A program made the position numbers and the translations under genes. A stretch of 64,000 bases of DNA from Candidatus Omnitrophota bacterium (GTDB lineage: Bacteria; Omnitrophota; Gorgyraeia; Duberdicusellales; 4484-171): positions 34,560 to 98,559 of the forward strand of contig JAFGQU010000002.1 of NCBI GenBank assembly GCA_016935525.1. Reading direction: 5' to 3'. Below the pieces are notes generated by a model. The model was given only the letters and a program-made list of their open reading frames with translations, searched no databases and had not been told where the DNA came from. The stretch's first letter is position 1. The number at the start of each line of letters is the position of its first letter. This document shows, in pieces, positions 27,810-63,353 of the stretch.

Positions 27810-28565
27810 TTATTTTTTACCTTTTCTAGCCCACACCAGGAAATATCTGATTAATTTATATAATTCCTTACCCATCGCCCACGAATCCTTCGTTATGCTT
27901 ACAGTGCTTGAACTATTTCCCGACATAAAGATAGGTAGTTCTTTAATACGCATATCCTGCTGGCGCAGCTTGAGGATCAATTCGAGATCAAATAGAAACC
28001 CGGCGCATAAAAAATCCCCTCCCAGTCGATCAAACACATCTTTTTTCAGGAATTTCGCTCCCCCTTGGGTATCGGAAAATTCCAGTTTAAACAGGACTTT
28101 TACAATATAATTGAATACCCGGCTCAGGCATTTCCGAAAAAATTTCTGTCTTACGTTACCAAAGGAATTCCCCTTCCATTTAGAAAAAATAAGGCAATCA
28201 CAGGAATCATTATCCAATAAAGTAAGTTTATCTTTTATTAAATCCAGAGGAAACGGGGCATCGGCATCTACAAAACCGATAATAGATGTCCGGGCGGCTT
28301 TAAATCCTTCCTGAAGAGCAATCCCTTTCCCTAGCCGCTGTTTAAAATACAGATACGATACCCCGGGATCTTCCCGCGCGATATTTTTGATAATTGAGAG
28401 CGTATCGGACAGAGGGTCATTTACTACCACAATGATCTTTGGTCCTGAGCCAAACGTTGCCCTGATCTTCCTCATTGTATCGCCAATGTGCCTTTCGGCC
28501 CGGAAAGCGGGGATCACTACCGATATACCGCTATCGTATTGTGAACCGTTTTTTGATATTTGCAT
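27810..28565 (-). CDS. family 2 glycosyltransferase (polyprenyl-phosphate sugar transferase-like)
   Basis: ISVVIPAFRAERHIGDTMRKI and a DAD (DxD) motif in FVDADAPFP; 251 aa is the size of DPM1/GtrB-like enzymes. Confidence 0.75.
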   Translation of the reverse strand: MQISKNGSQYDSGISVVIPAFRAERHIGDTMRKIRATFGSGPKIIVVVNDPLSDTLSIIKNIAREDPGVSYLYFKQRLGKGIALQEGFKAARTSIIGFVDADAPFPLDLIKDKLTLLDNDSCDCLIFSKWKGNSFGNVRQKFFRKCLSRVFNYIVKVLFKLEFSDTQGGAKFLKKDVFDRLGGDFLCAGFLFDLELILKLRQQDMRIKELPIFMSGNSSSTVSITKDSWAMGKELYKLIRYFLVWARKGKK

Positions 28566-30033
28566 AAAAAGTTTTTGGTAGATAATAGAAATATTTTCTA
28601 TAGTATCTTCTGCGGGGAATATCCAGACGCTCCCGGGAAAACATCATATAAGGATATTCAATACATGCCGGATTTATCATCGGCAAGAAACGATATAATC
28701 TATGACGCACACACCAACGGAATATTCTCAGGGATAAAAAATGGTATAACACGAACAATAAATGGAACCTCTTTTTTTCTTTTGCCAGTCCCGGATCAAC
28801 CAAGGTGTTCGCATTTTCACAAGGGCACTCCTCCAGTTCTCTTATCTTTTGAGCATTAAGGACATCCTGTTTTTCGGCAATATCGACAATCGAAGTACCA
28901 GGATAATATTTCAACCAAAAGATACATATCCGATCGGGCCGATGTTGCCCGTAAAATTCTGCCATTTCAATCAAATCGCCGGTTGTTTCTCCGGGATATC
29001 CAATAATATTATCAACCACTATCCGCAACCGATAACTACGACATACCTCAATCGCTTTTATAATCTGTTCATTAGTGGTCATCCGCTGGAAAATACGTTG
29101 ACGGACATCAGGATTTACGCTCTGAACCCCCATACATAACTGATAGCATCCCCCTTGTTTCAAAAGCGAAATGGTCTCTTCGTCAATCGTGGAAGGAGAG
29201 CCAAAACAGTAAAAAGGTACGTTTATTTCTTTACGATAGCAAGCCACAAACTCTCTTAACCACGGGGTGTGGTAAGTAAACAGATCATCATTGATCCTTA
29301 ATAATTTAAAACGATATTTCTGTTTAGCGGCCCTTAATTCTTCCATTACGTTATCGACACTGCGTAATCTTATCCGCTTTGGCTCTTTACTGTACACCCG
29401 GTCCAGCACGGAATGGTGACAATAAGAACAACGGTTAAGACAACCCCGGCGAGTAATCAGAGTATAACCATGGTGGTAACCGGGGATTTCACGATAATAC
29501 AACTCTTTGTCCGGAAAAGGAAGGCTATCAAGATCAGCTATGAGTGGACGCACCGGATTAGAAATAATTTGTTTCTCTTTTTTCAACCATACATTGGGTA
29601 TTGAGTAATCAATCTTCCCTGATGCTAAAGATTGAACTAATTCTAGAAATGCGTACTCCCCTTCTCCGACGATAACTGAATCCACACATTCCTGTAAAAT
29701 GACTTTGTCCGGGACAGAAGAAGGATGAATCCCCCCCATGGTGATATGGACCGGTAAAGAAGCCTTTATTTTCTTTGCCAGATCGAGGGCCCAAAGATAA
29801 TTGGCACTCACGACGGAAAAAGCTATCAGTTGAGGTTGAAAATCTTCGATCTGTTTCAATAGTATCCGTTCGGAATTGAACAATCCGCTCAAGAAACCGC
29901 ATTTAAAAAAAGGATCCCGAAAAAGCTGAGGATCGAAGGCAAGACGGGTTTCTACCCCACAATCGAGTAGCATCGCAGAAAGGTATTCAATACCTATATT
30001 TTCAAATCCCGGATATACGAACATTACTTTCAT
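28531..30033 (-). CDS. B12-binding domain radical SAM protein (class B)
   Basis: MKVMFVYPGFENIGIEYLSAML B12-domain start; TRRGCLNRCSYCHHS CX3CX2C. Confidence 0.8.
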   Translation of the reverse strand: MKVMFVYPGFENIGIEYLSAMLLDCGVETRLAFDPQLFRDPFFKCGFLSGLFNSERILLKQIEDFQPQLIAFSVVSANYLWALDLAKKIKASLPVHITMGGIHPSSVPDKVILQECVDSVIVGEGEYAFLELVQSLASGKIDYSIPNVWLKKEKQIISNPVRPLIADLDSLPFPDKELYYREIPGYHHGYTLITRRGCLNRCSYCHHSVLDRVYSKEPKRIRLRSVDNVMEELRAAKQKYRFKLLRINDDLFTYHTPWLREFVACYRKEINVPFYCFGSPSTIDEETISLLKQGGCYQLCMGVQSVNPDVRQRIFQRMTTNEQIIKAIEVCRSYRLRIVVDNIIGYPGETTGDLIEMAEFYGQHRPDRICIFWLKYYPGTSIVDIAEKQDVLNAQKIRELEECPCENANTLVDPGLAKEKKRFHLLFVLYHFLSLRIFRWCVRHRLYRFLPMINPACIEYPYMMFSRERLDIPRRRYYRKYFYYLPKTFYANIKKRFTIR

Positions 30034-30046
30034 CGCTCTTTTTAGC

Positions 30047-31045
30047 TTATAGATATTGCGCTGCGTCGAAAATCGCGCTTAGTTTTCCTGAATAGATAAG
30101 ATTTAACTCTAACGTGGAGGTACACGCACAATAATCACACCCGGCAATCGGCATACTTTCTATGATCTCTTTTAAAGATTTGGATGACTGAAAATACTCC
30201 ACGGGTAAATTCGTTTTCTTTGACATCATCCCCGAACAACAATAGAAACTGCCCACCGGGTCGATACGGAAAAACATTCTACCGGCACAACAAGCCATCG
30301 GTCTATAATGAGGATAGTCACTTAAATACCCGAGACCTGCCTGAGAATTCACTATAGTCCGCCCATACCCTTTCTTTTTCATCTGGATAAGCTGAGAGAT
30401 CGTATCCTTGAAATTCTCCGGCGAAGGAATATATTCTTTTATATCCTTATCTCCGCTGAGCAACATATTTACCGGCTGGAATTTCACTGTAATCCCTAAA
30501 CTATAGGCAAGTTCTACCAGATACCCCGCATACTCTAGATTTTTTCTGGTCAAAGTCGTATTCAAAGAAACACGAATACCATATTTTCGGGCTACCTTTA
30601 CCGCTCCGATAACCTCATCATAATGCCCTTCTCTATTGCGCAGTATGTCATTGATCGAAGCCGGCCCATCGAGACTTATTTTTACAAGGTCTACTTTCTT
30701 CAGCCAATCTAATCTTTCCGCGAATAATATGCCGTTAGTAAGAATCCCCAATGTGATATTTTTATTTTTACAATGCTCAATAATCACACCTAAATCTTCA
30801 CGTAAGAGCGGTTCTCCGCCGCCGAAATGGATATGCCTTAGGCCTAAAGCTGCCAGATCGTCAATAATATAAAGGATATCTTCAGTCGATAACTGCGCGG
30901 ACCAATGATGCATCACATCGCAATAGAGACAAGAACAATTACATTGATGGGTGATATCCCACCCTATGAATAAAGGGACTCTTTTTTTCAACAATTTTAC
31001 CCGCAGCAGGTTTTGTACATAAGGAAATATTTTTTTTATTCTCAT
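30047..31045 (-). CDS. radical SAM protein with C-terminal Cys-rich SPASM/twitch-like domain
   Basis: WDITHQCNCSCLYCDV (CX3CX2C), FGGGEPLLRED; C-terminal CCAGRMF...YCCSG...AGCDYCACTS. Start reset to MRIKKIFP at 31045 forming an ATGA stop/start overlap with the upstream gene. Confidence 0.8.
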   Translation of the reverse strand: MRIKKIFPYVQNLLRVKLLKKRVPLFIGWDITHQCNCSCLYCDVMHHWSAQLSTEDILYIIDDLAALGLRHIHFGGGEPLLREDLGVIIEHCKNKNITLGILTNGILFAERLDWLKKVDLVKISLDGPASINDILRNREGHYDEVIGAVKVARKYGIRVSLNTTLTRKNLEYAGYLVELAYSLGITVKFQPVNMLLSGDKDIKEYIPSPENFKDTISQLIQMKKKGYGRTIVNSQAGLGYLSDYPHYRPMACCAGRMFFRIDPVGSFYCCSGMMSKKTNLPVEYFQSSKSLKEIIESMPIAGCDYCACTSTLELNLIYSGKLSAIFDAAQYL

Positions 31046-32037
31046 ACTACTTTCCTTAATACCATCCTCCCGGTATTCCAAATCGCTTCCGGATGCAATC
31101 CGTATAAGAGGCTCATTTCCACCCGCTGCGCACACCAGCAGGAAGAACAATGGCCAGCAACAAGTCGTTGAAATGCTTCAGCCACCCCATTATCGACAAT
31201 ATTTATCCTGGTTTTCTGGTTCCGGTTGCACACACATACATCTCCCGAACTCTGCACGCGACAGGAAAAATAGTCCGCCCTACAGCGCAAGGGATAAGGT
31301 CCCGGCCAATGGGCAAAATGGCGTAAACATGCCGATGAATTGGTAATATATATATTTTTTTTCTTAAGAATAAGCAATTTTTTTATCGCCGCGCTATATT
31401 CTTCAAAAGAAGGAAGTAAAGGATTGTCTTGATGAGCACAATACAGTAAAGATGTAGTAAGCGGCTGAAAGGTTATTGTTGCTTGATACGACTGTGCTGT
31501 CGTTAACAAAAAATCGATTTGATCCAAGTTTAAGCGGGTCAAGGTCGCCGCGAAATTCAAAGGGATATTATGCCGCCGGGCACATTCAGCGGCTTCTAAA
31601 ACCTTATCGTAAGACCCTTCCTGCCGGATCGTATCATGAACCGACCGATTTCCCTCTATACTAAGACTTAACAGATCTACTTTTTGCAAAGAATCGATCT
31701 TTTTTTTCACATCCCATCCGTTCGAACTCACCGAAACATATATGCCTTTCTTTTTACAGTACGCGATGATCTTTCCAAGATCATCGCGCAGGAGCGGTTC
31801 GCCGCCGGTAAAAGAAATAAACCGGGTCCCTAATTGAAAGAAATCTACGATTTTTTCGATAACAACATCGGTAGATAACTCTTTCTGAGGGGTTTCCCAG
31901 ACTCCACAATATACACAACGCAGATTACAACGGGAGGTCAGGGCCCAACTTACCAAAAGGGGGATCTTTTTCCCGCAAAACTTGACTTTACTCAAAGTGA
32001 TCAGCAATTTCAATATGTCATTGTATTTCATTTTCAC
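31042..32037 (-). CDS. radical SAM/SPASM-like protein
   Basis: LTSRCNLRCVYCGVW, FTGGEPLLRDD; C-terminal CRADYFSCRV...CVCN...GHCSSCWCAQ. Confidence 0.8.
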   Translation of the reverse strand: MKMKYNDILKLLITLSKVKFCGKKIPLLVSWALTSRCNLRCVYCGVWETPQKELSTDVVIEKIVDFFQLGTRFISFTGGEPLLRDDLGKIIAYCKKKGIYVSVSSNGWDVKKKIDSLQKVDLLSLSIEGNRSVHDTIRQEGSYDKVLEAAECARRHNIPLNFAATLTRLNLDQIDFLLTTAQSYQATITFQPLTTSLLYCAHQDNPLLPSFEEYSAAIKKLLILKKKNIYITNSSACLRHFAHWPGPYPLRCRADYFSCRVQSSGDVCVCNRNQKTRINIVDNGVAEAFQRLVAGHCSSCWCAQRVEMSLLYGLHPEAIWNTGRMVLRKVV

Positions 32038-32113
32038 TATAATTCACCATTGACCGGATGTGGTATATATTATTCCGAAAATCAAACCGGGATCTGCATA
32101 TTGGATCTTTGAA

Positions 32114-34006
32114 TTAGATCTTTATGTTATACCTCTCCGCCCAAAGATAAAAACAAAGTAACCCGAAAATCTTCCAACTATGGTCTTCCTGCCGGAGACG
32201 ATGCTGACGCAACAAAATTTCAATGTACTTACGCTGAAATACCTGCCCGGTTAATTTAGATGAAAAGAAAACTTCTTCTGCTGTCTTGCCCCAATCATTA
32301 CGGATCCATAAAGATAACGGGGTAGTAAACCCCCGCTTAGGCCTGTGGATAATCTTATGAGGTATTTTCCCCGCCATTATTCTCTTAAAAATATATTTCG
32401 TAGTAAACCGATGCAATTTCATCTCTAAGGGCAGATGTGCGCAAAAGGCGACAAGCCGATGGTCCAAAAAAGGCACACGACTCATTAATGAGAACGCCGA
32501 AGTCATGCTGTCTAACCGTTTGAGCATTGAAAGCAGCAGGATTTTTTGATCGGCATAAAGGACTTTCTCGAGGATAGAGGCATCTTCTCTTTTCCTATAA
32601 TAAAAGTCATAGAGAGAAAAAGGATCATAATTTCCCATTCTCTCGGTTATCGCGGGACAGCATAACTGTTCTCTTTCAAAACCAGAAAACACTTCCCGCC
32701 AGAAAAAATGGGCGCGACCTAAAGGATACTGCGTTCCTTGTAAGAATCTCTTTAATTTAAACCTCATTCCCCAAGGATTATCCCCAAGAAGACACCGAAT
32801 ATCCAAAATCTTATGTACATATTGTAAGCCGGCTGGGGATAAAAAACGGCTCAACATGCACAGCAATTTATCCGCTACATAGGTATCATATCCGGCAAGA
32901 ATCTCATCAGCGCCGGTTCCGACAAAAAGGATCTTAACCGATTGGCTTGCGAATTGGGATATAAAATAGGTGGGGATAATACTGGGGTCTGCGATCAGAT
33001 CGCTATTATGTTTCATGAGCGTTTGAAGCGTATGGATATCTACATCTGCCGAAGAGATAACGATTTCATGGTGATCGGTTTTTAATTGACGGGAAAACCA
33101 TTGAGCATACCTTCGGTTATCATCAAATTTTTTCTCTCTAAAGCCTAAAGAAAAGGTGGAAAGCGGCCTTGAATCTTGATCAAGGAAATAGCTTATCGCC
33201 GAAGAATCGATCCCTCCGCTTAATAAAACCCCCTGTTGGGGCACTCCAATAGTCCTTTTATGGACAGCATCTTCTAAAAGGCATTCAAATCGTTCTTCGT
33301 ACTGTTTCTTTTGGGTGTACTCTTTTTTTTCGTTTTCCAGAATATCCCAGTATTGCACTTTACGCATCTCTTCTGGAGAAAACGACACATATGTCCCCGG
33401 TTCAAGCTGATGGATACCTTTAAATAACGTCAACGGGCCCGGCACATAATTAAGAGAAAGATATTGGGCGAATGCCGTATAATCTAACTCTCGCGGTATC
33501 TGTTGGTTGCATAACAATGCGCTGATTTCTGAAGCGAAAAAGAGTGATTGATGACGACGATAATAATAAAGAGGTTTCACTCCCAAATGGTCACGCGCCA
33601 TGTATAACACATTTTTAAATTTATCGAAAAGGCAAAAAGAAAATATACCGTTAAAACGGCCCACACATCCTTCCCCCCATTCTTTATAACTGTTTAATAT
33701 CACCTCTGTATCTGAATCCGATTCGAATGCATATCCTTTACGTTGTAATATTTCTCTGATTTCTCGATAATTATATAGTTCTCCGTTATATACCAGGATG
33801 GTCTTTTCGGCCCGATCACACATTGGCTGTTGGCCTCCGGAAGAACCGATAGTAACCAGCCGAGAATGTACGGCAGCGAACGAATTGGTAGAGAAAATAC
33901 CAATTTCATCTGTCCCCCGATGGGCTATGGCCTGAGACATTTCTCGCACCTGAAATGTTGTGGCTGGAGATCGCTCAAAATCGATATACCCGGCAAATCC
34001 ACACAT
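32114..34006 (-). CDS. asnB: asparagine synthetase B-like glutamine amidotransferase
   Basis: Ntn start MCGFAGYIDFE, PP-loop LLSGGIDSSAISYFL, 630 aa. Confidence 0.8.
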   Translation of the reverse strand: MCGFAGYIDFERSPATTFQVREMSQAIAHRGTDEIGIFSTNSFAAVHSRLVTIGSSGGQQPMCDRAEKTILVYNGELYNYREIREILQRKGYAFESDSDTEVILNSYKEWGEGCVGRFNGIFSFCLFDKFKNVLYMARDHLGVKPLYYYRRHQSLFFASEISALLCNQQIPRELDYTAFAQYLSLNYVPGPLTLFKGIHQLEPGTYVSFSPEEMRKVQYWDILENEKKEYTQKKQYEERFECLLEDAVHKRTIGVPQQGVLLSGGIDSSAISYFLDQDSRPLSTFSLGFREKKFDDNRRYAQWFSRQLKTDHHEIVISSADVDIHTLQTLMKHNSDLIADPSIIPTYFISQFASQSVKILFVGTGADEILAGYDTYVADKLLCMLSRFLSPAGLQYVHKILDIRCLLGDNPWGMRFKLKRFLQGTQYPLGRAHFFWREVFSGFEREQLCCPAITERMGNYDPFSLYDFYYRKREDASILEKVLYADQKILLLSMLKRLDSMTSAFSLMSRVPFLDHRLVAFCAHLPLEMKLHRFTTKYIFKRIMAGKIPHKIIHRPKRGFTTPLSLWIRNDWGKTAEEVFFSSKLTGQVFQRKYIEILLRQHRLRQEDHSWKIFGLLCFYLWAERYNIKI

Positions 34007-34277
34007 AATTATTTTTTAATGTGCATATGAGAAATCACTGAGGAAGGGCTTTCCCGGTAAAAAAAGGCAATATAACGGCATTCAAGAAAAAAACCTTGAC
34101 GGTTAATAAAAAAATCCACACATCCTCCCGTTTCAACAAAAACCATATGCCATCATAGTATCAATGAGATGAAATTGGAATGTGCCTATTGATTGATTTA
34201 AACCGGTATGAGCAGAAACCAACAAAATTCGTGAGGTACTATTTTCCTTATATCATCCGGTATATGTTCCTAAAAGA

Positions 34278-36005
34278 TTAATTGTCGTTGGGATTATTAT
34301 GGATTTTCTTCTCTTTAATTTCTCTCAAGAGGTCGGCGTAACCTTTATCAATTCCCTCTAATGTGTTAATAACGCCTGGCAAGCGATTCAGATATTCATC
34401 AGAAGTGCTGTGAGCGTATATGATTCCCAATAAAAAATACCCATCAGGGTGAGTGGGGGCGATCTTAATCGCTTCTTGATAGGATTTTACCGCAGGTTCG
34501 GTCTCTCCCACACGCGCATATATATTCCCTAATCCGATATGCCCAGCGATGTTTGAATGGTCTAACGCGACCGCTTTCTGGAAATACTCTTTGGCTTTCG
34601 TAAAATCTTCCCGGCCGAAATAGAATTCACCGATCCGGGTGTACACGCCGGCATCTTCATATCCTAATGACGCTGCTTTTTCAAAATGTTCAAGGGCAGA
34701 TTCTAACTGGCCTTCGGTCAAATAGACATGGCCCAAATTCATATGGGTAGCCGCATTCTCTTGATCGAACTGAATGCTTTTTTGATAGTATTTTTTTGCT
34801 TCGGGAAGGTCGTTTTTCTGCTGATACAGATCGCCCAGACTCCGATAGAGTCCCGCGTTATTTTGATCCTGCGTGAGCCCCTGACGATAATATTCTTCGC
34901 ATTTCTCGATATTTCCGGTCCGCTTATAAAGATTCCCTAAAATACTATACAGATTAGGATCTTTGGGATTGAGCGGTAACGCTTTTTCAAAATATCCAAT
35001 AGCCTTCTCCCATGCTTCTTTTTGGACATAGATATCCCCCAGCTCAAAATAAGCGGTATAATTATCCCCGGCTACGTCGAGCGCCCTCTGGAAAGAAGCT
35101 ATAGCCTCTTGGAAATTGCCTTTGCGCTTGTAGAGCTCCCCCAAACGGGTAGGGATGTCCTCCCGGGATACATTCAACTCCTGCGCTTTTTTAAAATATT
35201 GTATTGCTGTTTCTGTATTGTGTAACTTATCGTATATGTCTCCCAGAACGAAAAGGATCTCCTCACTATCTCCCTGAATCTTATAAGCTTTATGAAAAAA
35301 ATCGGCGGCTTTTTCAAATTCACCGCTCTGTTTATATAAATTGCCGATATGAAAATAAATATCCGCATTCTCCCGGTCAAGTGAAAGTAAATGTTCATAA
35401 TAGACAATTGCATTTTTGATATCACCTTTTTGCAGATAAAAATCTCCTAAAATATAATAGGTACGCGGATAGGTTGGGTCTATTTGAAGAGATTTTTCGT
35501 AAAAGTATATCGCCCGGTCAAGATCGTTCCGATCCCGGTACTCATCTCCTACTTCCTGGAACAGATTTCTTACTTCATCATATCTACCGGAATCATGAGG
35601 ATCATCTAATAAACTGATCCCTTGAGAGTAGTACTCGAGAGCTTTCTCTTTTTCCTTAAGCTCATAATACATATCGGCAATATGTATGTAAAGATGCGGG
35701 TTATTCTGTTCGAGTTGCAGTATCTTTCGCCCGTAATCAAGAGCTTTGCGATATTCCTTTTGAGCCCGGTATGCTTCCATCAAAGAATAATACGCCGGAA
35801 TATAATCATCCTCTAGCTTAAGCGCCTCATTATAATATTTTATCGCTCCCGGAAAATCGCCCTGCTTAAACGCGGCTTCTCCCAACACGACCAGCTCTCG
35901 ATGTGTGTTCTGAACAACCACATACGGTTTTTTCTCCGGCTCGCACCCCGCGATAATAATGAATAACACAAAGGCTAACGTTATTCTCGTTACAAACGGG
36001 ACCAT
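34278..36005 (-). CDS. TPR-repeat lipoprotein
   Basis: Signal peptide plus lipobox LFIIIAGC; about 15 tandem 34-aa TPR units (AxxYYxxAL...P pattern throughout). Confidence 0.7.
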   Translation of the reverse strand: MVPFVTRITLAFVLFIIIAGCEPEKKPYVVVQNTHRELVVLGEAAFKQGDFPGAIKYYNEALKLEDDYIPAYYSLMEAYRAQKEYRKALDYGRKILQLEQNNPHLYIHIADMYYELKEKEKALEYYSQGISLLDDPHDSGRYDEVRNLFQEVGDEYRDRNDLDRAIYFYEKSLQIDPTYPRTYYILGDFYLQKGDIKNAIVYYEHLLSLDRENADIYFHIGNLYKQSGEFEKAADFFHKAYKIQGDSEEILFVLGDIYDKLHNTETAIQYFKKAQELNVSREDIPTRLGELYKRKGNFQEAIASFQRALDVAGDNYTAYFELGDIYVQKEAWEKAIGYFEKALPLNPKDPNLYSILGNLYKRTGNIEKCEEYYRQGLTQDQNNAGLYRSLGDLYQQKNDLPEAKKYYQKSIQFDQENAATHMNLGHVYLTEGQLESALEHFEKAASLGYEDAGVYTRIGEFYFGREDFTKAKEYFQKAVALDHSNIAGHIGLGNIYARVGETEPAVKSYQEAIKIAPTHPDGYFLLGIIYAHSTSDEYLNRLPGVINTLEGIDKGYADLLREIKEKKIHNNPNDN

Positions 36006-37889: not shown

Positions 37890-37890
37890 A

Positions 37891-42484: not shown

Positions 42485-42755
42485 TATCGGAAAATACCAA
42501 CAGATCTTTTTCCATTCTGAGGTTCATCTGCCTCAGCTGCCTAAGCTCAAAAAACATACGGAGCGCAAGAAAGGTTATATTACAGTTTAAAAACAAAGTC
42601 GCAAGCAAAGTCATACCCAGGATAAAAATACCCCGGTCAAAAACAAAATATTCCCGGTGGTCAATCCATAAGAACCCTATCCCCAATACTACCCCGCTCA
42701 TAATGATGATCTGGGGGGCAAGAAGCAATGCGGCAATTTTTATTCGTCGGCTCAT
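42411..42755 (-). CDS. small membrane protein with cytoplasmic coiled-coil tail (same architecture as 37416-37889)
   Basis: Three hydrophobic helices, then RQLRQMNLRMEKDLLVFSDIVEKCTKTQTRKIDELSRIMEQHL. Confidence 0.4.
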   Translation of the reverse strand: MSRRIKIAALLLAPQIIIMSGVVLGIGFLWIDHREYFVFDRGIFILGMTLLATLFLNCNITFLALRMFFELRQLRQMNLRMEKDLLVFSDIVEKCTKTQTRKIDELSRIMEQHL

Positions 42756-53863: not shown

Positions 53864-53865
53864 TT

Positions 53866-56348: not shown

Positions 56349-58295
56349 TTACACGATACATTCTACCTTTATTTCTCCCGAGGTTTTCCGAGGATCACAA
56401 AAACAAGGTAAAAGACAAGGCCAGGGACACCGGGCAGCCTGGTTGTAAGCATGTATCCTGGCTGCCCCGTCAAGTATATCTCTTAACGACTGCTTTTTTA
56501 TATCGCCATAAAAAGAGAAACAAGTCGCACTTTTACCTTCATTCGCAATAAGCATCGTCTTTTGAGCCGACTTACAGCGGACATCGGTACCGCGCAGCTG
56601 ACGACGATAATATTTTTTCATTAAAAGCAGGTTCTCTTCCGAATTGCAAATGAAATCTTTATAGCGCTTTTTCGTTTGGATCAGCAGATCAACGGTTTTA
56701 TCCAGTAACGGCAGTTGATCCGGAGTGACCCAGAACGGAGACTGCCTCCGGTCAGCCATTCTCAAATTATTCGGCAGAAGCGCTTGAAATTGCAACGAAT
56801 TTACCTTTAATTCATAGAGAAAAGGGATTAACTGCGGCAATTCTTTTAGATTTGCTCCGCAGATAATACTGATTACATTAAACCGGACCTGGGCGCGGCG
56901 GCTTTTAAGCGCTGCCAGCAAACGCAGACTTTCTACCGTATGTTCCCAGGCGCAAGGCGAGTTCCGCATATAATTATGGATTCGGGGAGTAATCGAGTCG
57001 AGAGAGATTATTAAAGATATCGTCTCGTCGGTCAGATAGGGTTCTAAACGAGAAAACATTTCTTTTACGGCCAGACCATTACTTAATACGCCTATCTTTT
57101 TCAGGCCGAGGTGTCGGGCATGATCGAATATTTCCGGAATATCTTTCCTCAAAAGAGGTTCTCCACCGGAAAGGGTAATTTCTTTAATCCCGAGCCGGCG
57201 CGCTTCACGTAAGACTTTTTTTACATACCTCAACTCCAAGTCAGACTCCTCTTTGGCGGTTTTCCAGATGTCACATATCCGACAGGAAAGGTTACAACGA
57301 TGAGTGATGTCCAATATCAAGAGTTGCGGCGGCGGCAGCAGTTGTGGTGTAATTGTCTTATTTTTCTTTACTCTCAGGTACTCGGCAATATTACCCAGTA
57401 TATATACCGCCTTATGGATGCTCAGGCAGATGTACATCGACAGTTTTTTATTGATATTTTTGATCTGTTCTTTACAAATAAGTTTTCTTGCCAATATATA
57501 CACAAAACGGGGAATTTTAAGGATATTGAACGCGGTAGCCCGCCAAAAAGAAAATGTTCCCGGATCAAGCTCTTTCAATAAAGGATGGTCACGGTGGAGA
57601 TATTGGACCAAAAAGTTTCCGCGACCATAGATATAGGCTTGTCGAATAAAACTAAAAAAAGTCTCATCCCGGTCATGGACCACAATAATATCCTGATCCC
57701 AGAGAAACCTCTTACCATTTTTAAAAAGACGCCAGAAAAATTCCAGGTCTTCCCCTCCGGGAAAAGGAAAATGTTCATTAAACCGGGCCTGCTCAAATAC
57801 CTCTTTTTTAAAAGAGACATTGCAGGTGGGGAAGAATATCGCTTGCATTCCTTGACCTATTTTCACTTCAATACTGCACGTACTTAAAAACTGCCCCACC
57901 ATTACATAGCTTCTCTGCTGCGCGGGCAGAGTATCGCCTCCGATGGCCGCAATACCGGGATTATTTCCGTGGGCGGTGACCATTTTTCCTGCCCAATCCC
58001 GCCGGCAGATACAATCATCATCAACAAACCCGATAAGTCGTCCCCGGGCTTGATGTATGCCGAGATTTCTTGCTGCCGCCGGGCCCCGGTGATGTTGCGA
58101 GAAATAGCGCACCTGCGTAAATTCTTTAGCAAAATCCGAAATCAGTTGTTCGACCCGACAGTCGGAGGCATCATCAACAACGATAATCTCAAAATGTTCC
58201 TGAGGATAGTCCTGACCAAGCAAAGCATTAATACAATTTTTGAGCTTTTCTATCCGTTTATATGTGGGGACAATGATCGAAATGATGATATTCAT
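56349..58295 (-). CDS. family 2 glycosyltransferase fused to a C-terminal radical SAM/SPASM-like domain
   Basis: N-terminal IISIIVPTYKRIEKLKNCINALLGQDYPQEHFEIIVVDDASD and FVDDDC (GT2 DxD). A hydrophobic linker follows. The C-terminus has ITHRCNLSCRICDIW, LSGGEPLLRKD and RCPWPCLLPCFC. Start set at MNIIIS (58295), which has AAGGAG 6 nt upstream. Confidence 0.8.
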   Translation of the reverse strand: MNIIISIIVPTYKRIEKLKNCINALLGQDYPQEHFEIIVVDDASDCRVEQLISDFAKEFTQVRYFSQHHRGPAAARNLGIHQARGRLIGFVDDDCICRRDWAGKMVTAHGNNPGIAAIGGDTLPAQQRSYVMVGQFLSTCSIEVKIGQGMQAIFFPTCNVSFKKEVFEQARFNEHFPFPGGEDLEFFWRLFKNGKRFLWDQDIIVVHDRDETFFSFIRQAYIYGRGNFLVQYLHRDHPLLKELDPGTFSFWRATAFNILKIPRFVYILARKLICKEQIKNINKKLSMYICLSIHKAVYILGNIAEYLRVKKNKTITPQLLPPPQLLILDITHRCNLSCRICDIWKTAKEESDLELRYVKKVLREARRLGIKEITLSGGEPLLRKDIPEIFDHARHLGLKKIGVLSNGLAVKEMFSRLEPYLTDETISLIISLDSITPRIHNYMRNSPCAWEHTVESLRLLAALKSRRAQVRFNVISIICGANLKELPQLIPFLYELKVNSLQFQALLPNNLRMADRRQSPFWVTPDQLPLLDKTVDLLIQTKKRYKDFICNSEENLLLMKKYYRRQLRGTDVRCKSAQKTMLIANEGKSATCFSFYGDIKKQSLRDILDGAARIHAYNQAARCPWPCLLPCFCDPRKTSGEIKVECIV

Positions 58296-58387
58296 TGTTG
58301 TCTCCTTACACAGCAAACAGCTGAAAACACCTGTCTTCGCAGAATAAAAAAATAAGGGATTTTTCGTCTCTTTTAAAGAATCCGTTA

Positions 58388-58416
58388 ATTATACCACCCC
58401 TTAAAAGAAGTAACAA
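58388..58416 (-). promoter_or_regulatory. putative sigma70-like promoter (extended -10) in the only sizeable gap of the cluster
   Basis: On the minus strand: TTGTTA (plus 58411-58416), 17-nt spacer, TGgTATAAT (plus -10 at 58388-58393). It lies 93 nt upstream of the GT2-rSAM start. Confidence 0.3.
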
Positions 58417-58493
58417 CTCAAGGACCTTTTAGTCTTTTTATTGCCTTTTCCCTCAATACCTTTTGCCTCAAGGGACTTCCGTTTCTGGATACA

Positions 58494-61223
58494 TCATTCA
58501 TCAATGACAATATTCCCTTCACAAAGGAGGTATTGCCCGAGCTCATTGAATTTCTGCCCTTCTTCATTAAACCGCAAAATCCTTCCACGATGATAAAGAT
58601 CGGAATTTACTATACAAAACTTTCCCAAAGAAGACGTGAGGGACGAAGAAACCTTTATCGGAGGGAAGTGCTGCCGCCGGGGGCCGTTGACACGAGTAAC
58701 CCCTGATTGAAGATGGTCATATTCTCTGTTGTCTACACAAGCGATGATATCCCATTCATCATCGATTTCTCCACGAAAATCGGGAAAAATCCCCATCCGT
58801 GTGCCGAGATCCCATGTATCATATTCTTCTGAAAGCATAAGATTAGCCTGGATCCGGTCAAAAGCCACCGGCTTATCGATAAAAAGATATATTTGAAAAA
58901 TAATATTATTACTGTTTTCCAATCTCAAACGCCACAATTGCCGCAAAGGTAAAGGCGACCAGTCACCTTCACACATAAGACCTTCAGAGTCCTTTTTTAA
59001 GGTCCAGCGGGCATACGCACAAGAATCGTACCATCTTCCCTGTAATCGCAATGAAGAATAAAATCCTAACTTTTTTGTTAATTTCTGCCCCTGCCAATAG
59101 ATCTGACCCGCGCCTCCTTCAAATATGAACTTCAGGTCTTGCTGCTGTAACGTCCCCGAAGGACCAGTTTCCGACGGAGGAGTATGGCCCGGGAAACAGA
59201 CCGATACGTTAAAATCCTGTTCTTGTTCAACCGATGATGCGCACACGGATTCACCCATGCGATAGAAATTTATCACCCGTTTTTTCCGATAGCGATCACC
59301 GTTAAAGATCTTCGCAAAAGTATCTTTCCCGGCTACGTTCTCCAAATGGACAGGCAGGTATTCTTTTTGCCGGCTATAAAGTCCTATCGACCCTTGAGAA
59401 ATACACCGCTGAAGCACATCTACTTCAAAATCACAAAATTCCTCAGGGAACGCTTTCCTCCCGTAATCAGTCTGGAATTGTTGATAGGTATCGGAAAAAT
59501 AGAATCGTAAATCCTGTTCCTGAATGCGTATCTGACGAGGATTTTCTGTTTTTACCTTCAAGGAAAACGAATCCTTACCGGTCAATTCGATACGCCAGCG
59601 CTGGCGTATCGATAGATCCGGCCAATCACCGATAGCGATAATCCTTCCCTGAGCATCTTTTTCTACTTTCCAAAAAGCACGGGATGAATAATATTCTCTT
59701 GTTTCTACAGTCAGAAAAGAGTTTATTTTACCTACCATGATTTTCTGAAAAGAATTTATAAAGATCGAACATTCCCCCTGGGTAAATACTATCTGCATAT
59801 CCTGATTGTTGAGGATCGAATGTTCATAGGTATTTTTAAGATATGCGTCTGCCTTATCTTTTCCGACGATGATTTTTCCTGAAAAAAACAGCGCCCTTTG
59901 AGCCTGAGTATGCGAATAGTTATGGATATGCGCCAGTTTATATTGGGCTACCCGGCAGCGCAGAGAATAGTCGGTATTATAGATCTGGCTGGTCGCTACC
60001 GGGGTAGCATCATTTTGCGTAACAAGACAAGCCGGGACGGGATTATCGCCTGGCGATGATCCCGGATATACCGCGATGCATTGATGTTCCGAATGCCAGT
60101 TCAATAACGGACGCCAGTTTTTATCTTCAAGGGAAATATCAGGAAACTTTTTACCGTCAAAAGGGGTCCGCCAGCACACATATTCTTCGCTCAACATTAC
60201 ATTAAAATATCCTTCATCCAGATCGATAGTCTGGGCGCTTTCTATTTCAATATCGATATGGATCGCCTCATCCCGGTCAATCCATATATTCCAGACCTGG
60301 GTCAGATCCAACCGCAGCAATTCTCCGCCGGCAATGATTCTTTCGTCATCCTGGCTTACAATATGCCAGTCCCCCTGGGTGGAAGCCGACCATGTATCCT
60401 GCTGATGCATGACCGTATAAACCCCTTCATGAGGAGTAAGTAATGTCTCCCGGTGATATATAAAAAGTTTCCCGTTATTGAAAATAATCTTTACATCTCC
60501 CTTCTCGAAGACGGCGATACCTTGTTTTTCTCCGATCATCTTAGAATAAAGCGGAATGATCTTCTTTCTCGATCCGTCGGCGACTAACCTTCCGTTCTTA
60601 AGAAAAATCACCCGGTCACAAAGCTTAGAAAGTATACTCATGTCATGGGTTACAAAAAACATGGTTTTCCCGGACTCTTTGAGCTCGATGATCTTCTTTA
60701 TGCATTTCCTTTGAAAATATTCGTCGCCCACCGAAAGGGTATCATCGATAAGTACGATCTCCGCCGGAATATGTACCGCCAGAGAAAAAGCCAAGCGGAC
60801 GAACATCCCTTGAGAATAAGATCTAATCGGCGCATCGATGAACCGCCCTAAATCGGCAAAGGCGACAATGACATCATAAAGTCTGCCGATTTTTTCCTGT
60901 GATAAACCGTACAAACCGGCAATAGTAAGGATATTCTGATGTCCGGTCATCTCGGTTTCAAATCCCGCGCCAAATTCCAATAGCCCGGTCACTTTCCCGG
61001 TTACGTATATAGTACCCCTATCGGGGACCAACATGCCGGCAATGACTTTCAAAAGCGTCGATTTCCCTGAGCCGTTCTCACCGATCACCCCGACGGTCTC
61101 TCCGGGAATGACCGAGAAACTAATATCCCGCAATGCCCAAAAGTTTTCCCAGATGATTTTGGACCCCTTAATAAACTTCACCTTATACATTTCCCAGATA
61201 TTATTCGCGCGGATTATTTCCAT
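58494..61223 (-). CDS. ABC transporter ATP-binding protein of the Wzt/TagH polysaccharide-exporter type with ~650-aa repeated C-terminal extension
   Basis: Walker A GENGSGKST, signature YSQGMFVRLAFS, Walker B EIVLIDDTLSVGDE. The start is reset to MEIIRANN (61223), just after the permease stop. The C-terminal region holds three copies plus a truncated fourth of a ~125-aa module; each copy has GDW...L...W and two copies end in MLSEEY..W. Confidence 0.75.
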   Translation of the reverse strand: MEIIRANNIWEMYKVKFIKGSKIIWENFWALRDISFSVIPGETVGVIGENGSGKSTLLKVIAGMLVPDRGTIYVTGKVTGLLEFGAGFETEMTGHQNILTIAGLYGLSQEKIGRLYDVIVAFADLGRFIDAPIRSYSQGMFVRLAFSLAVHIPAEIVLIDDTLSVGDEYFQRKCIKKIIELKESGKTMFFVTHDMSILSKLCDRVIFLKNGRLVADGSRKKIIPLYSKMIGEKQGIAVFEKGDVKIIFNNGKLFIYHRETLLTPHEGVYTVMHQQDTWSASTQGDWHIVSQDDERIIAGGELLRLDLTQVWNIWIDRDEAIHIDIEIESAQTIDLDEGYFNVMLSEEYVCWRTPFDGKKFPDISLEDKNWRPLLNWHSEHQCIAVYPGSSPGDNPVPACLVTQNDATPVATSQIYNTDYSLRCRVAQYKLAHIHNYSHTQAQRALFFSGKIIVGKDKADAYLKNTYEHSILNNQDMQIVFTQGECSIFINSFQKIMVGKINSFLTVETREYYSSRAFWKVEKDAQGRIIAIGDWPDLSIRQRWRIELTGKDSFSLKVKTENPRQIRIQEQDLRFYFSDTYQQFQTDYGRKAFPEEFCDFEVDVLQRCISQGSIGLYSRQKEYLPVHLENVAGKDTFAKIFNGDRYRKKRVINFYRMGESVCASSVEQEQDFNVSVCFPGHTPPSETGPSGTLQQQDLKFIFEGGAGQIYWQGQKLTKKLGFYSSLRLQGRWYDSCAYARWTLKKDSEGLMCEGDWSPLPLRQLWRLRLENSNNIIFQIYLFIDKPVAFDRIQANLMLSEEYDTWDLGTRMGIFPDFRGEIDDEWDIIACVDNREYDHLQSGVTRVNGPRRQHFPPIKVSSSLTSSLGKFCIVNSDLYHRGRILRFNEEGQKFNELGQYLLCEGNIVIDE

Positions 61224-61230
61224 TCTATTC

Positions 61231-62013
61231 TTATAGTTCTTTGAGAAAATATTTCTTTCTGGAAAGAAAAAAAAGATACCCCGCTCCGAATGTGACCAGC
61301 CCCAGGAAAATCGCAACACCCCACAGATGAGCACCGGGAAATTGTCCGAACAAAAGGATATCGCGATATATACGGATATAAAAAACCATGGCATTACAAT
61401 TATACATCCATCGAACTGGATCGGGGACCATATCGATCGAATAGAATATCGGCGTGATCCAAAACCAGAATAACAATATTGTCCCCAAAAGGTGAGAAAG
61501 GTCTCTCACAAACACGTTCACGCAGGCGACCACAAGGCCAAGTCCGGCTACGAAAAACAGATGGGCCAGAAGGACCAACGGCAACCCGAGTAAAGTTTTG
61601 GTTACCTGTATATTAAACAGACAGAATATCGGGATAATAAAAATAAGCCCAAAGACAAAATTGATGAAATTCGCACATACTACCGAAAGCGGGATAAATT
61701 CCACGGGAAGATTATACTGACGTAAAAGCTGCGCTTTTTGGATTATTGATACTGAAGATTCCGATAACGATACTGAGAAGAAAAACCAGGGGAGCAAACC
61801 GGCTAATGAAAACAAAGAAAAATTCTCAATATTTACTTTTATGATCTTGGTAAAGATAAACGTCACGGTCGCCATGATCAGCAAAGGAGTGACTACCGAC
61901 CACCATACCCCTAACAGCGAACCGATATACTTGGTCTTCAGTTCTTTTTTTATCAGACTCCACAAAATATGTCTCTGCGAGATCAATACGTTCATACCTA
62001 CCGGAGTGGTCAT
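61231..62013 (-). CDS. ABC-2 type transporter permease (Wzm/TagG-like)
   Basis: 260 aa and six predicted TM helices. The N-terminal cytoplasmic KKELKTKYIGSLLGVWWSVVTPL block is typical of ABC-2 permeases. It overlaps the upstream gene by 4 nt and precedes the ATPase. Confidence 0.7.
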   Translation of the reverse strand: MTTPVGMNVLISQRHILWSLIKKELKTKYIGSLLGVWWSVVTPLLIMATVTFIFTKIIKVNIENFSLFSLAGLLPWFFFSVSLSESSVSIIQKAQLLRQYNLPVEFIPLSVVCANFINFVFGLIFIIPIFCLFNIQVTKTLLGLPLVLLAHLFFVAGLGLVVACVNVFVRDLSHLLGTILLFWFWITPIFYSIDMVPDPVRWMYNCNAMVFYIRIYRDILLFGQFPGAHLWGVAIFLGLVTFGAGYLFFLSRKKYFLKEL

Positions 62014-63353
62014 CGATGCGCCAATAAAGCTGCCGTACGTTCGGCTTCCAAAATCACATCTTCCATCGACATATATTGCCAGCCGCCAAAACGCCCCACC
62101 GGGAAGATATGGTAGGCATGTAAGTATTTCAAAATATTACTCCTGGCGGTTTTCCACTCGAAATCATAAAGAGGATACGCAAAGGGTATATCGTTTACAT
62201 GGATTGTCTCGATCGCGTGCGGCGAAGAGATGATCTTCGCTTTCATTAAATCGTCTATCGCCTGCTTTTCTATTTTCTTATCCAGAGGCTTCCCTTTAGA
62301 ATATGAGACTTCCACATAGAGCGATCTCTTTCCCGGAGGGACCAAAGAAGGAGAAAACCGGTCAAAACATCCCACTCGAAAGAAAGAATGCGCGTGTTCC
62401 GGAAAATACATCCAATGATGATCAAAATTGACCGGTTGAGCAAGCCCTAAATTTATATTATATATCGAAGTCCACCTTAATTTTTTAAAGTCATCACGGA
62501 CCGTATCGGGTAACCCGGCGATTACGTTCGCCAAAAGGGGCAACGGCATAGTAGAAACCAGCCGGTCATACTGCTGGGAGGACCCGTGAGAAAACCAGAT
62601 ACGTCTTGTGACCGGATCGATTCTCACGACTTCATGTTCGGTATGCATAGATTGATTACCGCGGGTAAAAGACTTGATCAACTGCTCAATCCCTCCGGAA
62701 GAAGGGTACCAGAAAAAAGAATGGTAACCTAACCTTCTTTTTTCTTCTCTTTGAATCCGGGCCCGGACTTGCCTGAGGGTAGGTACGACGATAAAATCAT
62801 TCACCCACTCACAGGAAAGTTCTTCTAAAGAAACCGTCCAGAATTTTTCATTATAAGGTTTCATGAAGTATTCGGTGATCGCCCGGCCGAAATGACAATG
62901 ACTCCATTGAGCAAAATTCTCCGGATGATCGCTCGGTATTCTCTTTTTTGCTTGAATAAAGCCTTCAAGACACGCAGCACGTACCTGTGGCGGCAACCCA
63001 TGGAGATTTGCCTGAAAAGGATAACGGATATGTGTATTGAATATAGAGACCGAAGCATCGCGTCGATGGCGGGTCAGATCCTTCCCCATAAGAGAATGAA
63101 GTAACGTGAATACTTCCGGACGTCTAAAATGCAGTAAATGGCCGCAATAATCAAACGTATACCCGTTGATATGCGTGGAACGACAAAGCCCGCCTATATT
63201 TTTTTCTTTTTCATATACTGGCGCGGTAATACCGGATCCTCTCAAGAAAAAGGCAGTCGCAATCCCGGAGAGACCCGCGCCAATAATGATGATTTTTCCA
63301 CCCGGAAGGGAATCCTGGGCGCGATGGATTAAGGAATGCGTCTCTGTGGACAT
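62010..63353 (-). CDS. FAD-dependent oxidoreductase of the UDP-galactopyranose mutase / amine-oxidase fold (Glf-like)
   Basis: KIIIIGAGLSGIATAFFL Rossmann GxGxxG, EKEKNIGGLCRS and GHLLHF blocks resemble UDP-galactopyranose mutase; 447 aa. Confidence 0.5.
   Translation of the reverse strand: MSTETHSLIHRAQDSLPGGKIIIIGAGLSGIATAFFLRGSGITAPVYEKEKNIGGLCRSTHINGYTFDYCGHLLHFRRPEVFTLLHSLMGKDLTRHRRDASVSIFNTHIRYPFQANLHGLPPQVRAACLEGFIQAKKRIPSDHPENFAQWSHCHFGRAITEYFMKPYNEKFWTVSLEELSCEWVNDFIVVPTLRQVRARIQREEKRRLGYHSFFWYPSSGGIEQLIKSFTRGNQSMHTEHEVVRIDPVTRRIWFSHGSSQQYDRLVSTMPLPLLANVIAGLPDTVRDDFKKLRWTSIYNINLGLAQPVNFDHHWMYFPEHAHSFFRVGCFDRFSPSLVPPGKRSLYVEVSYSKGKPLDKKIEKQAIDDLMKAKIISSPHAIETIHVNDIPFAYPLYDFEWKTARSNILKYLHAYHIFPVGRFGGWQYMSMEDVILEAERTAALLAHR

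Follow-up and report, generated by a model that had tools for sequence, protein, structure and literature searches.

The Wzm/Wzt pathways for O-polysaccharide and capsule (E. coli O9a, Klebsiella O12, mycobacterial galactan) are built on an ATP-binding cassette (ABC)-2 permease and an ATPase with a C-terminal extension. The same pair was found in a 64,000-nucleotide stretch of a Candidatus Omnitrophota genome (assembly GCA_016935525.1, contig JAFGQU010000002.1, positions 34,560 to 98,559), referred to here as the window, in a block of 28 genes (window positions 27810–63353) that also encodes 19 radical S-adenosylmethionine (rSAM) domains. We consider it probable that this block is the main part of a Wzm/Wzt ABC-transporter-dependent pathway for a cell-surface glycopolymer, tailored by rSAM enzymes, in an anaerobic Omnitrophota bacterium. 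The resemblance to the described pathways includes cytoplasmic assembly by glycosyltransferases of families 2 and 4 (GT2 and GT4) and, in related loci, a WecA-type initiator and an O-antigen-ligase-like gene; a putative mutase resembling UDP-galactopyranose mutase (UGM) recalls galactofuranose-containing glycan systems. Unlike those Wzm/Wzt pathways, in which the Wzt extension is the PF14524 jelly-roll, the extension here was predicted to form three supersandwich domains; 19 rSAM domains stood where the described loci have their usual methyl, phosphate, acetyl or amino-sugar enzymes, and genes for a nucleotide-sugar dehydratase or aminotransferase were missing from the block. In its frame for assembly and export, the block is of the known Wzm/Wzt kind (O-polysaccharide, capsule, teichoic-acid-like).

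The wall teichoic acid pathway offers a second comparison. The best match of the block's ATPase (g03) was TagH, and the GT2 half of a GT2-rSAM fusion protein (g04) was structurally nearest to TarP, TarS and RmlT, whose cytoplasmic substrate is a lipid-linked polymer that they decorate ahead of ABC export; relatives of the locus also carried a PF00953 initiator. In contrast to the wall teichoic acid pathway, the block had no TagF/TarL polyol-phosphate polymerase and no CDP-glycerol or CDP-ribitol genes, its rSAM array has no counterpart there, and the source organism belongs to a Gram-negative-type lineage.

For the radical enzymes, the nearest solved relatives of three proteins of the block (g18, g19 and g22) were among the sugar-acting rSAM enzymes, a group that includes BlsE, BtrN, AprD4, DesII, HpnJ and GenK/GenD1. 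BlsE is a sugar decarboxylase, and BlsE, anSME, BtrN, AprD4 and HpnJ all act on sugars. These enzymes occur singly, in aminoglycoside, nucleoside and hopanoid pathways, whereas here an array lies in a polymer-export locus; to our knowledge, sugar-acting rSAM enzymes are known almost only singly, in antibiotic or cofactor pathways. Gene clusters for peptides made on the ribosome and modified after translation (RiPPs) that hold several rSAM genes (polytheonamide Poy, the SCM cassette, GeoRSP, sactipeptides and ranthipeptides) resemble the block in having rSAM/SPASM and B12-rSAM genes side by side, and the block gave weak hidden Markov model matches to ScmE/F, the GeoRSP rSAM, WgkB and StsB. Unlike those clusters, it yielded no precursor, RiPP recognition element (RRE) or protease, and its transporter and flanking genes were of glycan type. 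A study of groundwater Elusimicrobia is said to have reported rSAM-rich loci centred on NifH/NifD-like paralogues and predicted to modify a tetrapyrrole. The large rSAM suite and the uncultivated groundwater phylum are common to both, whereas NifH/NifD-like genes were absent from the block; we know of no GT/Wzm/Wzt core in those loci.

A search of open-access papers and bioRxiv returned no description of the locus, of the GT2-rSAM fusion or of a triple-domain Wzt, in line with the earlier note on this DNA, made from the sequence alone, whose author had not recognised the architecture as a described system. In a recent preprint on complete Omnitrophota genomes, radical SAM is mentioned only among the Pfam domains of a sugar-metabolism module within the giant-protein catalogue. 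The locus is large, conserved, typical of Omnitrophota and, as far as this search goes, undescribed.

Gene content and radical SAM domains of the block

All 28 long open reading frames (ORFs) between 27810 and 63353 were on the minus strand, as the earlier note had stated, and every plus-strand ORF of at least 100 amino acids in this interval was nested within a longer minus-strand ORF having Pfam matches. Neighbouring genes overlapped or abutted. Two gaps exceeded 100 bp, 34007–34277 (271 bp) and 58317–58493 (177 bp), where a single such gap in the last 30 kb had been claimed. From upstream to downstream, the genes were as follows (TM, transmembrane; TPR, tetratricopeptide repeat).

62010–63353, minus: g01, UGM-related FAD flavoenzyme, putative sugar-nucleotide pyranose/furanose mutase (PF01593, PF13450)
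61231–62013, minus: g02, Wzm-type ABC-2 permease with multiple TM segments (PF01061, 66 bits)
58494–61223, minus: g03, Wzt/TagH-like ABC ATPase of 909 aa with a C-terminal extension of ~600 aa (PF00005)
56349–58316, minus: g04, GT2-rSAM fusion of 655 aa (PF00535, 100 bits; PF04055, 79 bits)
53866–56298, minus: g05, two rSAM domains and SPASM, 810 aa (PF04055 in two stretches; PF13186, 51.6 bits; CX3CX2C at residues 49 and 520)
52799–53863, minus: g06, radical SAM, accessory set (PF04055, 72 bits; CNLDCLYC)
51847–52818, minus: g07, radical SAM, accessory set (PF04055, 67 bits; CNLQCLMC, GGEP)
50886–51857, minus: g08, radical SAM/SPASM, accessory set (PF04055, 62 bits; PF13186, 51.4 bits)
49729–50889, minus: g09, radical SAM/SPASM (PF04055, 66 bits; PF13186, 25.9 bits)
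48725–49726, minus: g10, radical SAM (PF04055, 74 bits; nearest paralog g12, 35% identity)
47655–48689, minus: g11, radical SAM (PF04055, 65 bits)
46576–47646, minus: g12, radical SAM, semi-conserved, 21 loci (PF04055, 93 bits)
45324–46586, minus: g13, radical SAM, semi-conserved, 14 loci (PF04055, 88 bits)
44203–45345, minus: g14, radical SAM/SPASM, core, 32 loci (PF04055, 82 bits; PF13186, 28 bits)
42766–44163, minus: g15, B12-binding (class B) radical SAM (PF02310, 47.8 bits; PF04055, 69 bits)
42411–42755, minus: g16, small membrane protein of 114 aa, about two TM segments and a helical tail by hydropathy, no family match
41654–42484, minus: g17, class-I SAM methyltransferase, in 7 related loci (weak Methyltransf_31/11/25 and CmoB-like matches)
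40485–41669, minus: g18, radical SAM (PF04055, 86 bits)
39265–40488, minus: g19, radical SAM/SPASM, core, 25 loci (PF04055, 90 bits; PF13186, 48 bits)
37891–39216, minus: g20, membrane-anchored GT2, core, 25 loci (PF00535, 119 bits; TM-like segments at residues 258–308)
37416–37889, minus: g21, small membrane protein of 157 aa with a coiled-coil tail, no family match
36070–37419, minus: g22, B12-binding radical SAM, core, HpnJ/BchE/AprD4-like (PF02310, 46.7 bits; PF04055, 72 bits)
34278–36005, minus: g23, PrsT-like TPR lipoprotein (13 TPR repeats; IIAGC lipobox; PEP_TPR_lipo, 240 bits, cut-off 312)
32114–34006, minus: g24, glutamine-dependent AsnB-type amidotransferase (PF00733, 238 bits; GATase_7; passes TIGR01536, 421 bits vs 267)
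31042–32037, minus: g25, radical SAM, PTO1314-like, distal module (PF04055, 96 bits; 33% identical to g26)
30047–31150, minus: g26, radical SAM, distal module (PF04055, 93 bits)
28531–30033, minus: g27, B12-binding radical SAM, distal module (PF02310, 55.1 bits; PF04055, 80 bits)
27810–28565, minus: g28, small GT2, polyprenyl-phosphate-sugar-synthase-like, last gene (PF00535, 72 bits; weak PpgS/AglJ-type matches)

An independent Logan assembly (L161, run SRR13394437) showed 0 mismatches to the window over 15,507 nt and placed the start of Wzt at 61223 (909 aa). Because Wzt begins there, a 164-nt overlap between wzt and wzm was an ORF-calling artefact; the two genes were adjacent and 7 nt apart. 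The start of g04 was called elsewhere at 58295 (648 aa). Pairwise identity among the rSAM paralogs was just 20–35%, with a maximum between g10 and g12, and collapsed paralogs were therefore excluded. Mis-assembly, whether through collapsed paralogs, a possibility raised in the earlier note, or through chimeric repeats, was ruled out by this low identity together with the identical independent assembly, and the layout was kept in dozens of further genomes, which argues against chance or artefact.

By PF04055 (gathering cut-off 29.5 bits; scores 62–156 bits) and the CX3CX2C motif, 19 rSAM domains were found in 18 proteins, as g05 holds two complete domains. The earlier note had counted 20, made up of 16 SPASM/twitch-type and four B12-binding domains; the 16 non-B12 domains stood, and those combining PF02310 (cut-off 32.1 bits) with an rSAM core came to three (g15, g22 and g27). 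Of the two motifs on which that count was based, CX3CX2C was present in 19 of the 19 domains and GGEP followed the cluster motif in just 13. Profile searches supported radical SAM in all 18 proteins and SPASM in some: PF13186 (cut-off 21.5 bits) scored above its cut-off in five (g05, g08, g09, g14 and g19) and slightly under it in g11, g13 and g18, and was undetected by the Pfam search in g04, g06, g07, g10, g12, g25 and g26. C-terminal Cys clusters were present in all non-B12 rSAM proteins, nearly all as C..C..CX3CX3C, and their auxiliary-cluster regions had the unusual spacing C-x(10-20)-C-x(~30)-CX3CX3C. A regular-expression scan of the block proteins for the canonical SPASM motif CX2CX5CX3C gave zero matches, and 'SPASM' is therefore used loosely here; to judge from the Cys patterns, 'SPASM/twitch-like' seems a fair label for the 16 non-B12 domains. 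No rSAM protein of the block attained any curated NCBIfam cut-off.

Comparison with family models and PDB entries gave the following nearest relatives. The best NCBIfam match of g15 was a RiPP C-methyltransferase subfamily (127 bits, cut-off 282). The nearest PDB entries of g14 were SuiB (1e-7) and BlsE (2e-6), that of g18 was BlsE, a cytosylglucuronate decarboxylase (5.5e-12), and those of g19 were BlsE (1.2e-11), PqqE, anSME and, for its auxiliary-cluster region, BtrN. Among family models g22 scored highest with HpnJ (261 bits, cut-off 578), and its PDB match was AprD4 (3.8e-22). The matches of g18, g19 and g22 to BlsE, AprD4, BtrN and anSME are remote and would count as leads only.

Glycan-type gene context and conservation in related loci

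The flavoenzyme g01 has an amine-oxidase fold, and its similarity is to UGM of the eukaryote type and covers almost the full length of the protein. Alignment of g01 with the UGM of Trypanosoma cruzi (PDB 4dsg) gave E=5.7e-45 over residues 18–428, and Aspergillus UGM matched at ~1e-36. In the T. cruzi alignment the flavin-loop GGH stood opposite CGH, and W, Y, R, Y, GRFG and Y positions were conserved; the flap arginine R176 aligned with a Phe in g01. These positions, the flavin-loop His and R176 are what we take to be active-site and flap residues of UGM. All NCBIfam matches of g01 were under their cut-offs, the bacterial Glf model TIGR00031 giving 49 bits against 304, and g01 homologues were present in 31 related loci fetched with g04. 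On this alignment, 'UGM-like mutase', with the specificity left uncertain, is the best name for g01, which agrees with the Glf-like flavoenzyme proposed in the earlier note.

The exporter genes gave matches of the same kind. The best NCBIfam match of g02 was the galactan exporter Wzm/RfbD; g03 scored highest with the teichoic-acid exporter TagH (185 bits) and next with the galactan exporter Wzt/RfbE, and all three matches were below cut-off. The C-terminus of Wzt gave no match in Pfam and PDB sequence searches. By structure prediction and fold search, its ~600-aa extension was modelled as three galactose-mutarotase-like beta-supersandwich domains, the best structural matches of which were almost all carbohydrate-active enzymes. 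The triple supersandwich is, on these models, a candidate stand-in for PF14524 that would be functionally analogous to it without being the same domain.

In g04, CNLSCRIC was at residue 341 and GGEP at 384. The AlphaFold2 model (predicted local distance difference test score 87.9) placed the GT2 half nearest to TarP, TarS, RmlT, BcsA and hyaluronan synthase, all of which build polymers, or decorate them, on the cytoplasmic side ahead of export. An invariant CxxPCLLPCFC was seen at the C-terminus of the fusion protein.

The remaining accessory functions named in the earlier note were likewise found. There were three GT2 proteins by PF00535 (g04, g20 and g28), one of them fused to an rSAM domain, together with the class-I methyltransferase g17, the lipoprotein g23 and the amidotransferase g24, which passed TIGR01536 and scored 427 bits with the exopolysaccharide-locus amidotransferase model TIGR03108 (cut-off 817). 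By their sequence similarities, the PrsT-like lipoprotein, a glycoside hydrolase family 44 (GH44)-like lipoprotein encoded upstream of the window and the exopolysaccharide-type AsnB amidotransferase would round off the set of genes typical for an envelope polysaccharide. Directly upstream of the flavoenzyme gene in related loci (L046 and P0083), and translationally coupled, were genes for a PF00953 transferase of the WecA/TarO type and for a GT4, the PF00953 gene overlapping the flavoenzyme gene. One related locus further held a pair of epimerase/dehydratase genes, along with genes for a GT2 and for the O-antigen-ligase-like Wzy_C, the latter being recorded for the P0083 locus. Taken together, several independent lines of context point to a carbohydrate substrate. 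The glycan-tailoring interpretation of the earlier note gained support from the UGM homology, the GT4 and PF00953 genes of relatives, the Wzt and GT2 folds and the GH44-like lipoprotein.

The locus was found well beyond this genome. At least 120 homologous clusters at 90% identity were recovered for the GT2-rSAM fusion, all with the same fusion and with 45–57% identity to it, and the source names, where given, were mostly Omnitrophica or Omnitrophota. At the 50% identity level about five representative clusters spanned the full fusion length, from which it follows that the fusion is a tight family; g04 is the signature gene of the system. Among GTDB species representatives, 57 loci had the full fusion and most were labelled Omnitrophota; some carried the automated label 'Planctomycetales', and a few were labelled Paceibacterota, Nanoarchaeota or Woesearchaeota. 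The syntenic arrays that the earlier note had proposed to look for were thus present in at least 57 species-level genomes and in many metagenome contigs.

When ORFs of the fetched loci were labelled by their best match among window proteins, a recurring order was obtained: GT4, WecA-like PF00953 protein, UGM-like flavoenzyme, TPR protein (in some loci), Wzm, Wzt of ~905 aa and GT2-rSAM fusion, followed by a variable rSAM set, the g18-g19 pair, GT2, small membrane protein, B12-rSAM and GT2. The most conserved rSAM of the system was g18, found in 33 loci at a median identity of 56% and always paired with g19, and g14 mostly came directly after the fusion. Genes like g21 lay between the GT2 and B12-rSAM genes in at least 10 loci and had a conserved C-terminal motif, CD.KD...LD(L/F)KK. 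The two small membrane proteins g16 and g21 were built alike, a helical tail following some two TM segments in each. No best-match counterpart of g08 was found among the fetched loci, and the distal module g25-g28 recurred separately in L069. The rSAM complement differed between species around a constant export and GT core, an arrangement that resembles, by analogy, the diversification of O-antigen tailoring genes. In 39 loci of at least 20 kb with both Wzm and Wzt, the median was 7 rSAM motifs (range 2–12) in the ~21 kb captured; the window, with 19 domains, was at the rich end of the related loci.

A scan seeded with g22 yielded 80 metagenome loci, with 217 relatives confirmed by tblastn among the first 600 pattern matches. 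Some of these loci shared the main gene order, and others formed a second architecture consisting of flavoenzyme, Wzm, Wzt and a 730–1200-aa B12-rSAM fusion, and then an rSAM array. This array was made either of tandem g11-like genes (up to 8; L106, L112 and L150) or of giant proteins with three to four rSAM motifs, the largest of 1806 aa; a 1413-aa protein (L113, 6852–11090) had three rSAM and three SPASM Pfam domains. By analogy, such natural multi-rSAM proteins suggest that the separate rSAM enzymes of the window may act together. Single proteins of 1,180–1,806 aa with three or four CX3CX2C motifs were seen in L113, L115, L126, L137 and L152/L153.

Conserved short ORFs absent from the window were observed in loci of the second architecture (L114, L119, L125, L127, L130, L132 and L143; L102, L104, L106 and L109). 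One family, of 37–46 aa, had a TM helix and ended in ...(F/L)FPG(A/S/N/G); the other was of 45–52 aa, basic and aromatic, with ..GG(L/F)FYA..RG..Y..WR. They might encode small membrane proteins or peptide substrates, or might reflect gene starts called wrongly. A small membrane ORF with ..WW(L/M).P(I/M)...QSS...PFIYxLF was present in L027, L060, L095 and L136; it may be DUF5989-like, and that family occurs in carbamoyltransferase-associated polysaccharide loci.

Several contigs with archaeal labels carried look-alike loci. In L067 (164 kb), Wzm, a Wzt of 465 aa and a GT2 were accompanied by 11 rSAM genes in a row, and L072 (147 kb, labelled Aenigmatarchaeota) had a GT2 and at least 16 rSAM genes within 22 kb. 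Three loci with the label Nanoarchaeota or Woesearchaeota (L044, L047 and L057) carried the GT2-rSAM fusion at 37–40% identity. No tRNAs were found when the contigs with archaeal labels were scanned, and their archaeal assignment is taken from those labels.

Proposed pathway and rival explanations

From context and the gene fusion, we infer that the glycan, or its lipid-linked or nucleotide precursors, is the substrate of the rSAM enzymes, and a pathway can be proposed. The sugar chain would be begun on polyprenyl phosphate at the cytoplasmic face, the starter in relatives being the WecA/TarO-type PF00953 enzyme; the gene for an initiator was not seen within the 43 kb covered for this genome. 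GT2 and GT4 transferases would extend the chain, with a furanose building block probably supplied by the UGM-like flavoenzyme. Still in the cytoplasm, the chain or its precursors would be rewritten by up to 19 rSAM domains: the three B12-dependent enzymes would probably C-methylate, or rearrange or dehydrate in the manner of HpnJ and AprD4, and the 16 with putative auxiliary clusters would probably oxidise, decarboxylate, epimerise, deoxygenate or couple C-C or C-O bonds, as BlsE, BtrN and anSME might suggest. Because the GT2-rSAM fusion occurs in at least 120 clusters and in 57 species-level genomes, glycosyl transfer and radical chemistry are likely to be physically coupled. The methyltransferase and the AsnB amidotransferase would add further decoration, the three galactose-mutarotase-like, putatively sugar-binding domains of Wzt would recognise the finished chain, Wzm/Wzt would export it, and the TPR and GH44-like lipoproteins would handle it in the periplasm.

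A number of observations weigh against this pathway. The Wzt carbohydrate-binding domain PF14524, for which the earlier note had suggested a profile check, was not found in g03 by Pfam, and the window with 7 kb upstream had no initiating transferase, no WaaL and no nucleotide-sugar synthesis genes beyond the mutase. The rSAM half of g04 was by fold nearest to the RiPP maturases SuiB and SkfB, and the BlsE and AprD4 matches were remote (E 1e-11 to 1e-22) and lay chiefly over the common rSAM core. As every rSAM protein falls under the curated family cut-offs, no chemistry can be transferred by homology. We know of no glycan pathway with more than one or two rSAM enzymes.

A first alternative is that the rSAM enzymes cross-link, epimerise or methylate a peptide or surface protein encoded elsewhere, which the GT2 enzymes glycosylate and the ABC-2 system exports. 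SPASM/twitch enzymes are known mostly as peptide maturases, and many of the top sub-threshold NCBIfam matches were to maturases (WgkB, StsB and ScmE/F); the match of g15 and the SuiB/SkfB-like half of g04 agree with this, AsnB homologues include lasso-peptide cyclases, and conserved ORFs of 37–52 aa occur in some related loci. We nevertheless regard a RiPP-like function as unlikely. Translation of every ORF with 20 aa or more in the window locus, gaps and overlaps alike, gave nothing leader-like, Cys-rich or repetitive, as the earlier note had also concluded, and when 1,054 small ORFs of this locus and of all fetched loci were clustered, no conserved family included the window. The sole conserved small proteins of the window block were the membrane proteins g16 and g21, which are unlike RiPP precursors. 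Pfam detected no PqqD/RRE (PF05402), leader peptidase or peptidase-containing transporter (PCAT) domain in the 28 proteins, and with CX3CX2C only 16–70 residues from the N-termini there is no space for a fused RRE. The transporter is of the Wzm/Wzt type with sugar-binding-fold domains, and RiPP pathways have no use for UGM-like, WecA-like, GT4 or GH44-like genes. About as unlikely, in our view, is a lipid or glycolipid pathway, in which a membrane lipid or polyprenoid would be the target of the rSAM enzymes, would receive a head group from the GT2 enzymes and would be flipped or exported by the ABC-2 system; the earlier note had allowed a glycolipid. Models for such modification exist in hopanoid HpnJ/HpnR/HpnP, the ladderane candidates and the tetraether-lipid (GDGT) enzymes Tes/Grs/Hbs. 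HpnJ was the top match of g22, all three B12-rSAM proteins matched the 'lipid biosynthesis B12/rSAM' (ladderane) model TIGR04072 at 89–116 bits, and several rSAM proteins weakly matched Tes. In the same direction, Mss/Hbs lipid rSAM enzymes occur elsewhere in some Omnitrophota (10.1101/2023.10.20.563219; PMC11868695). Every one of the lipid-rSAM matches of the block was, however, far under its curated cut-off: for the hopanoid models, HpnJ 261 against 578, HpnR 110 against 650 and HpnH at most 70 against 225, with no shc or hpn genes found. Lipid, isoprenoid, squalene and fatty-acid genes were absent from the locus and its relatives, and the sugar-binding-fold Wzt domains and the UGM-like enzyme favour a carbohydrate. 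HpnJ itself acts on the sugar moiety of the hopanoid, which also speaks against a lipid substrate.

More improbable than either is that several operons are juxtaposed, with a glycosylated cofactor or metabolite pathway (mycofactocin-, tetrapyrrole- or nucleoside-like) beside an unrelated polysaccharide export operon. Both larger GT2 proteins had the mycofactocin glycosyltransferase MftF as their best or second-best match (128–133 bits, cut-off 280), many rSAM proteins scored highest with tungsten-cofactor maturase, NirJ or AhbD models, and candidate internal promoters, the two gaps above 100 bp and the separate occurrence of the distal module in L069 would suit such a division. Set against this, the rSAM genes always accompanied the Wzm-Wzt-GT2 core, whether the contigs were from Omnitrophota or bore archaeal labels, one rSAM was fused to a GT2, and the genes overlapped or abutted. 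No MftA/B/D/E or tetrapyrrole genes were found; the rSAM proteins scored at most 109 bits with MftC (cut-off 265), and there were no further Mft genes.

Returning to the glycopolymer pathway, a wider form of it may be put forward tentatively, at slightly less than even confidence: that Omnitrophota, and apparently some DPANN archaea, make an unrecognised class of surface glycopolymer shaped mainly by radical chemistry. The arrays and fusions, with up to ~20 rSAM domains, might then be an anaerobic tailoring line working on a lipid-linked chain, its chemistry might comprise C-methylation, deoxygenation, epimerisation or C-C and ether cross-links, and the triple domains of Wzt might read the product. 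If this were so, an rSAM complement varying from species to species would give a hypervariable 'radical glycan code' on ultra-small, host-dependent cells. With rSAM enzymes numbering from 4 to 19 or more, among them a GT2-rSAM fusion and proteins of three to four rSAM domains, a conserved locus for export would imply much unexplored radical chemistry of carbohydrates, and a new type of cell-envelope polymer would follow. Omnitrophota are nano-sized, host-dependent or predatory anaerobes, and it is probably through their surface chemistry that they make contact with hosts and phages. Enzymologists could start from g04, from the g18/g19 pair or from the triple-domain Wzt, and the locus could mark the phylum in genomic data; with the archaeal-labelled loci comes the question whether genes have passed between ultra-small bacteria and archaea.

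Flanks of the block and minor observations

The placement of the exporter at the upstream end of the locus, as given in the earlier note, was correct in so far as an ABC2_membrane permease and a Wzt/TagH-like ATPase were present; the locus itself extended farther upstream. In L161, same-strand genes continued upstream of 63353 and past the window end, encoding a 930-aa GDSL/SGNH protein, a U32-family protein, a 336-aa polytopic membrane protein, the 700-aa GH44-like lipoprotein and a 214-aa protein. The flanking features within the window were as follows.

63564–64000, minus: C-terminal part of the 214-aa protein, last gene of the upstream extension, no family match
27130–27213, minus: tRNA-Leu(GAG), downstream boundary of the block, with PEPCK, PurC and SMC next

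The Peptidase_U32-family gene (L161, 2530–3759) was on the same strand, ~3.5 kb past window position 64000, and its profile match was N-terminal only (47 bits). U32 proteins include O2-independent hydroxylases (UbiU/V, TrhP and RlhA), an activity that would suit an anaerobic tailoring pathway. The remainder of the window encoded housekeeping functions (TsaD, GatA/B, RpoD, DnaG, SMC, PurC and PEPCK). An Rfam scan of the window returned two tRNAs and nothing else, and promoter and terminator scans showed no enrichment over shuffled sequences, with two intergenic candidates only. Near-identical 22-nt direct repeats were present at 27333–27354 and 27634–27655 and copied the 5′ end of the tRNA-Leu (68% identity to 27198–27219); these repeats at the edge of the block may be remnants of a partial tRNA duplication or of integration.

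At a distance of 25 kb from the block, a B12-binding radical SAM gene (330–1802, 490 aa) overlapped a GDSL/SGNH hydrolase gene (1768–2835). Since GDSL(+TPR) proteins occur inside homologous loci and upstream in L161, this pair might belong to the system as a part that has become detached. Among the very few plus-strand genes of the window was one for a GGDEF diguanylate cyclase (17645–18832); cyclic di-GMP often governs exopolysaccharide production.

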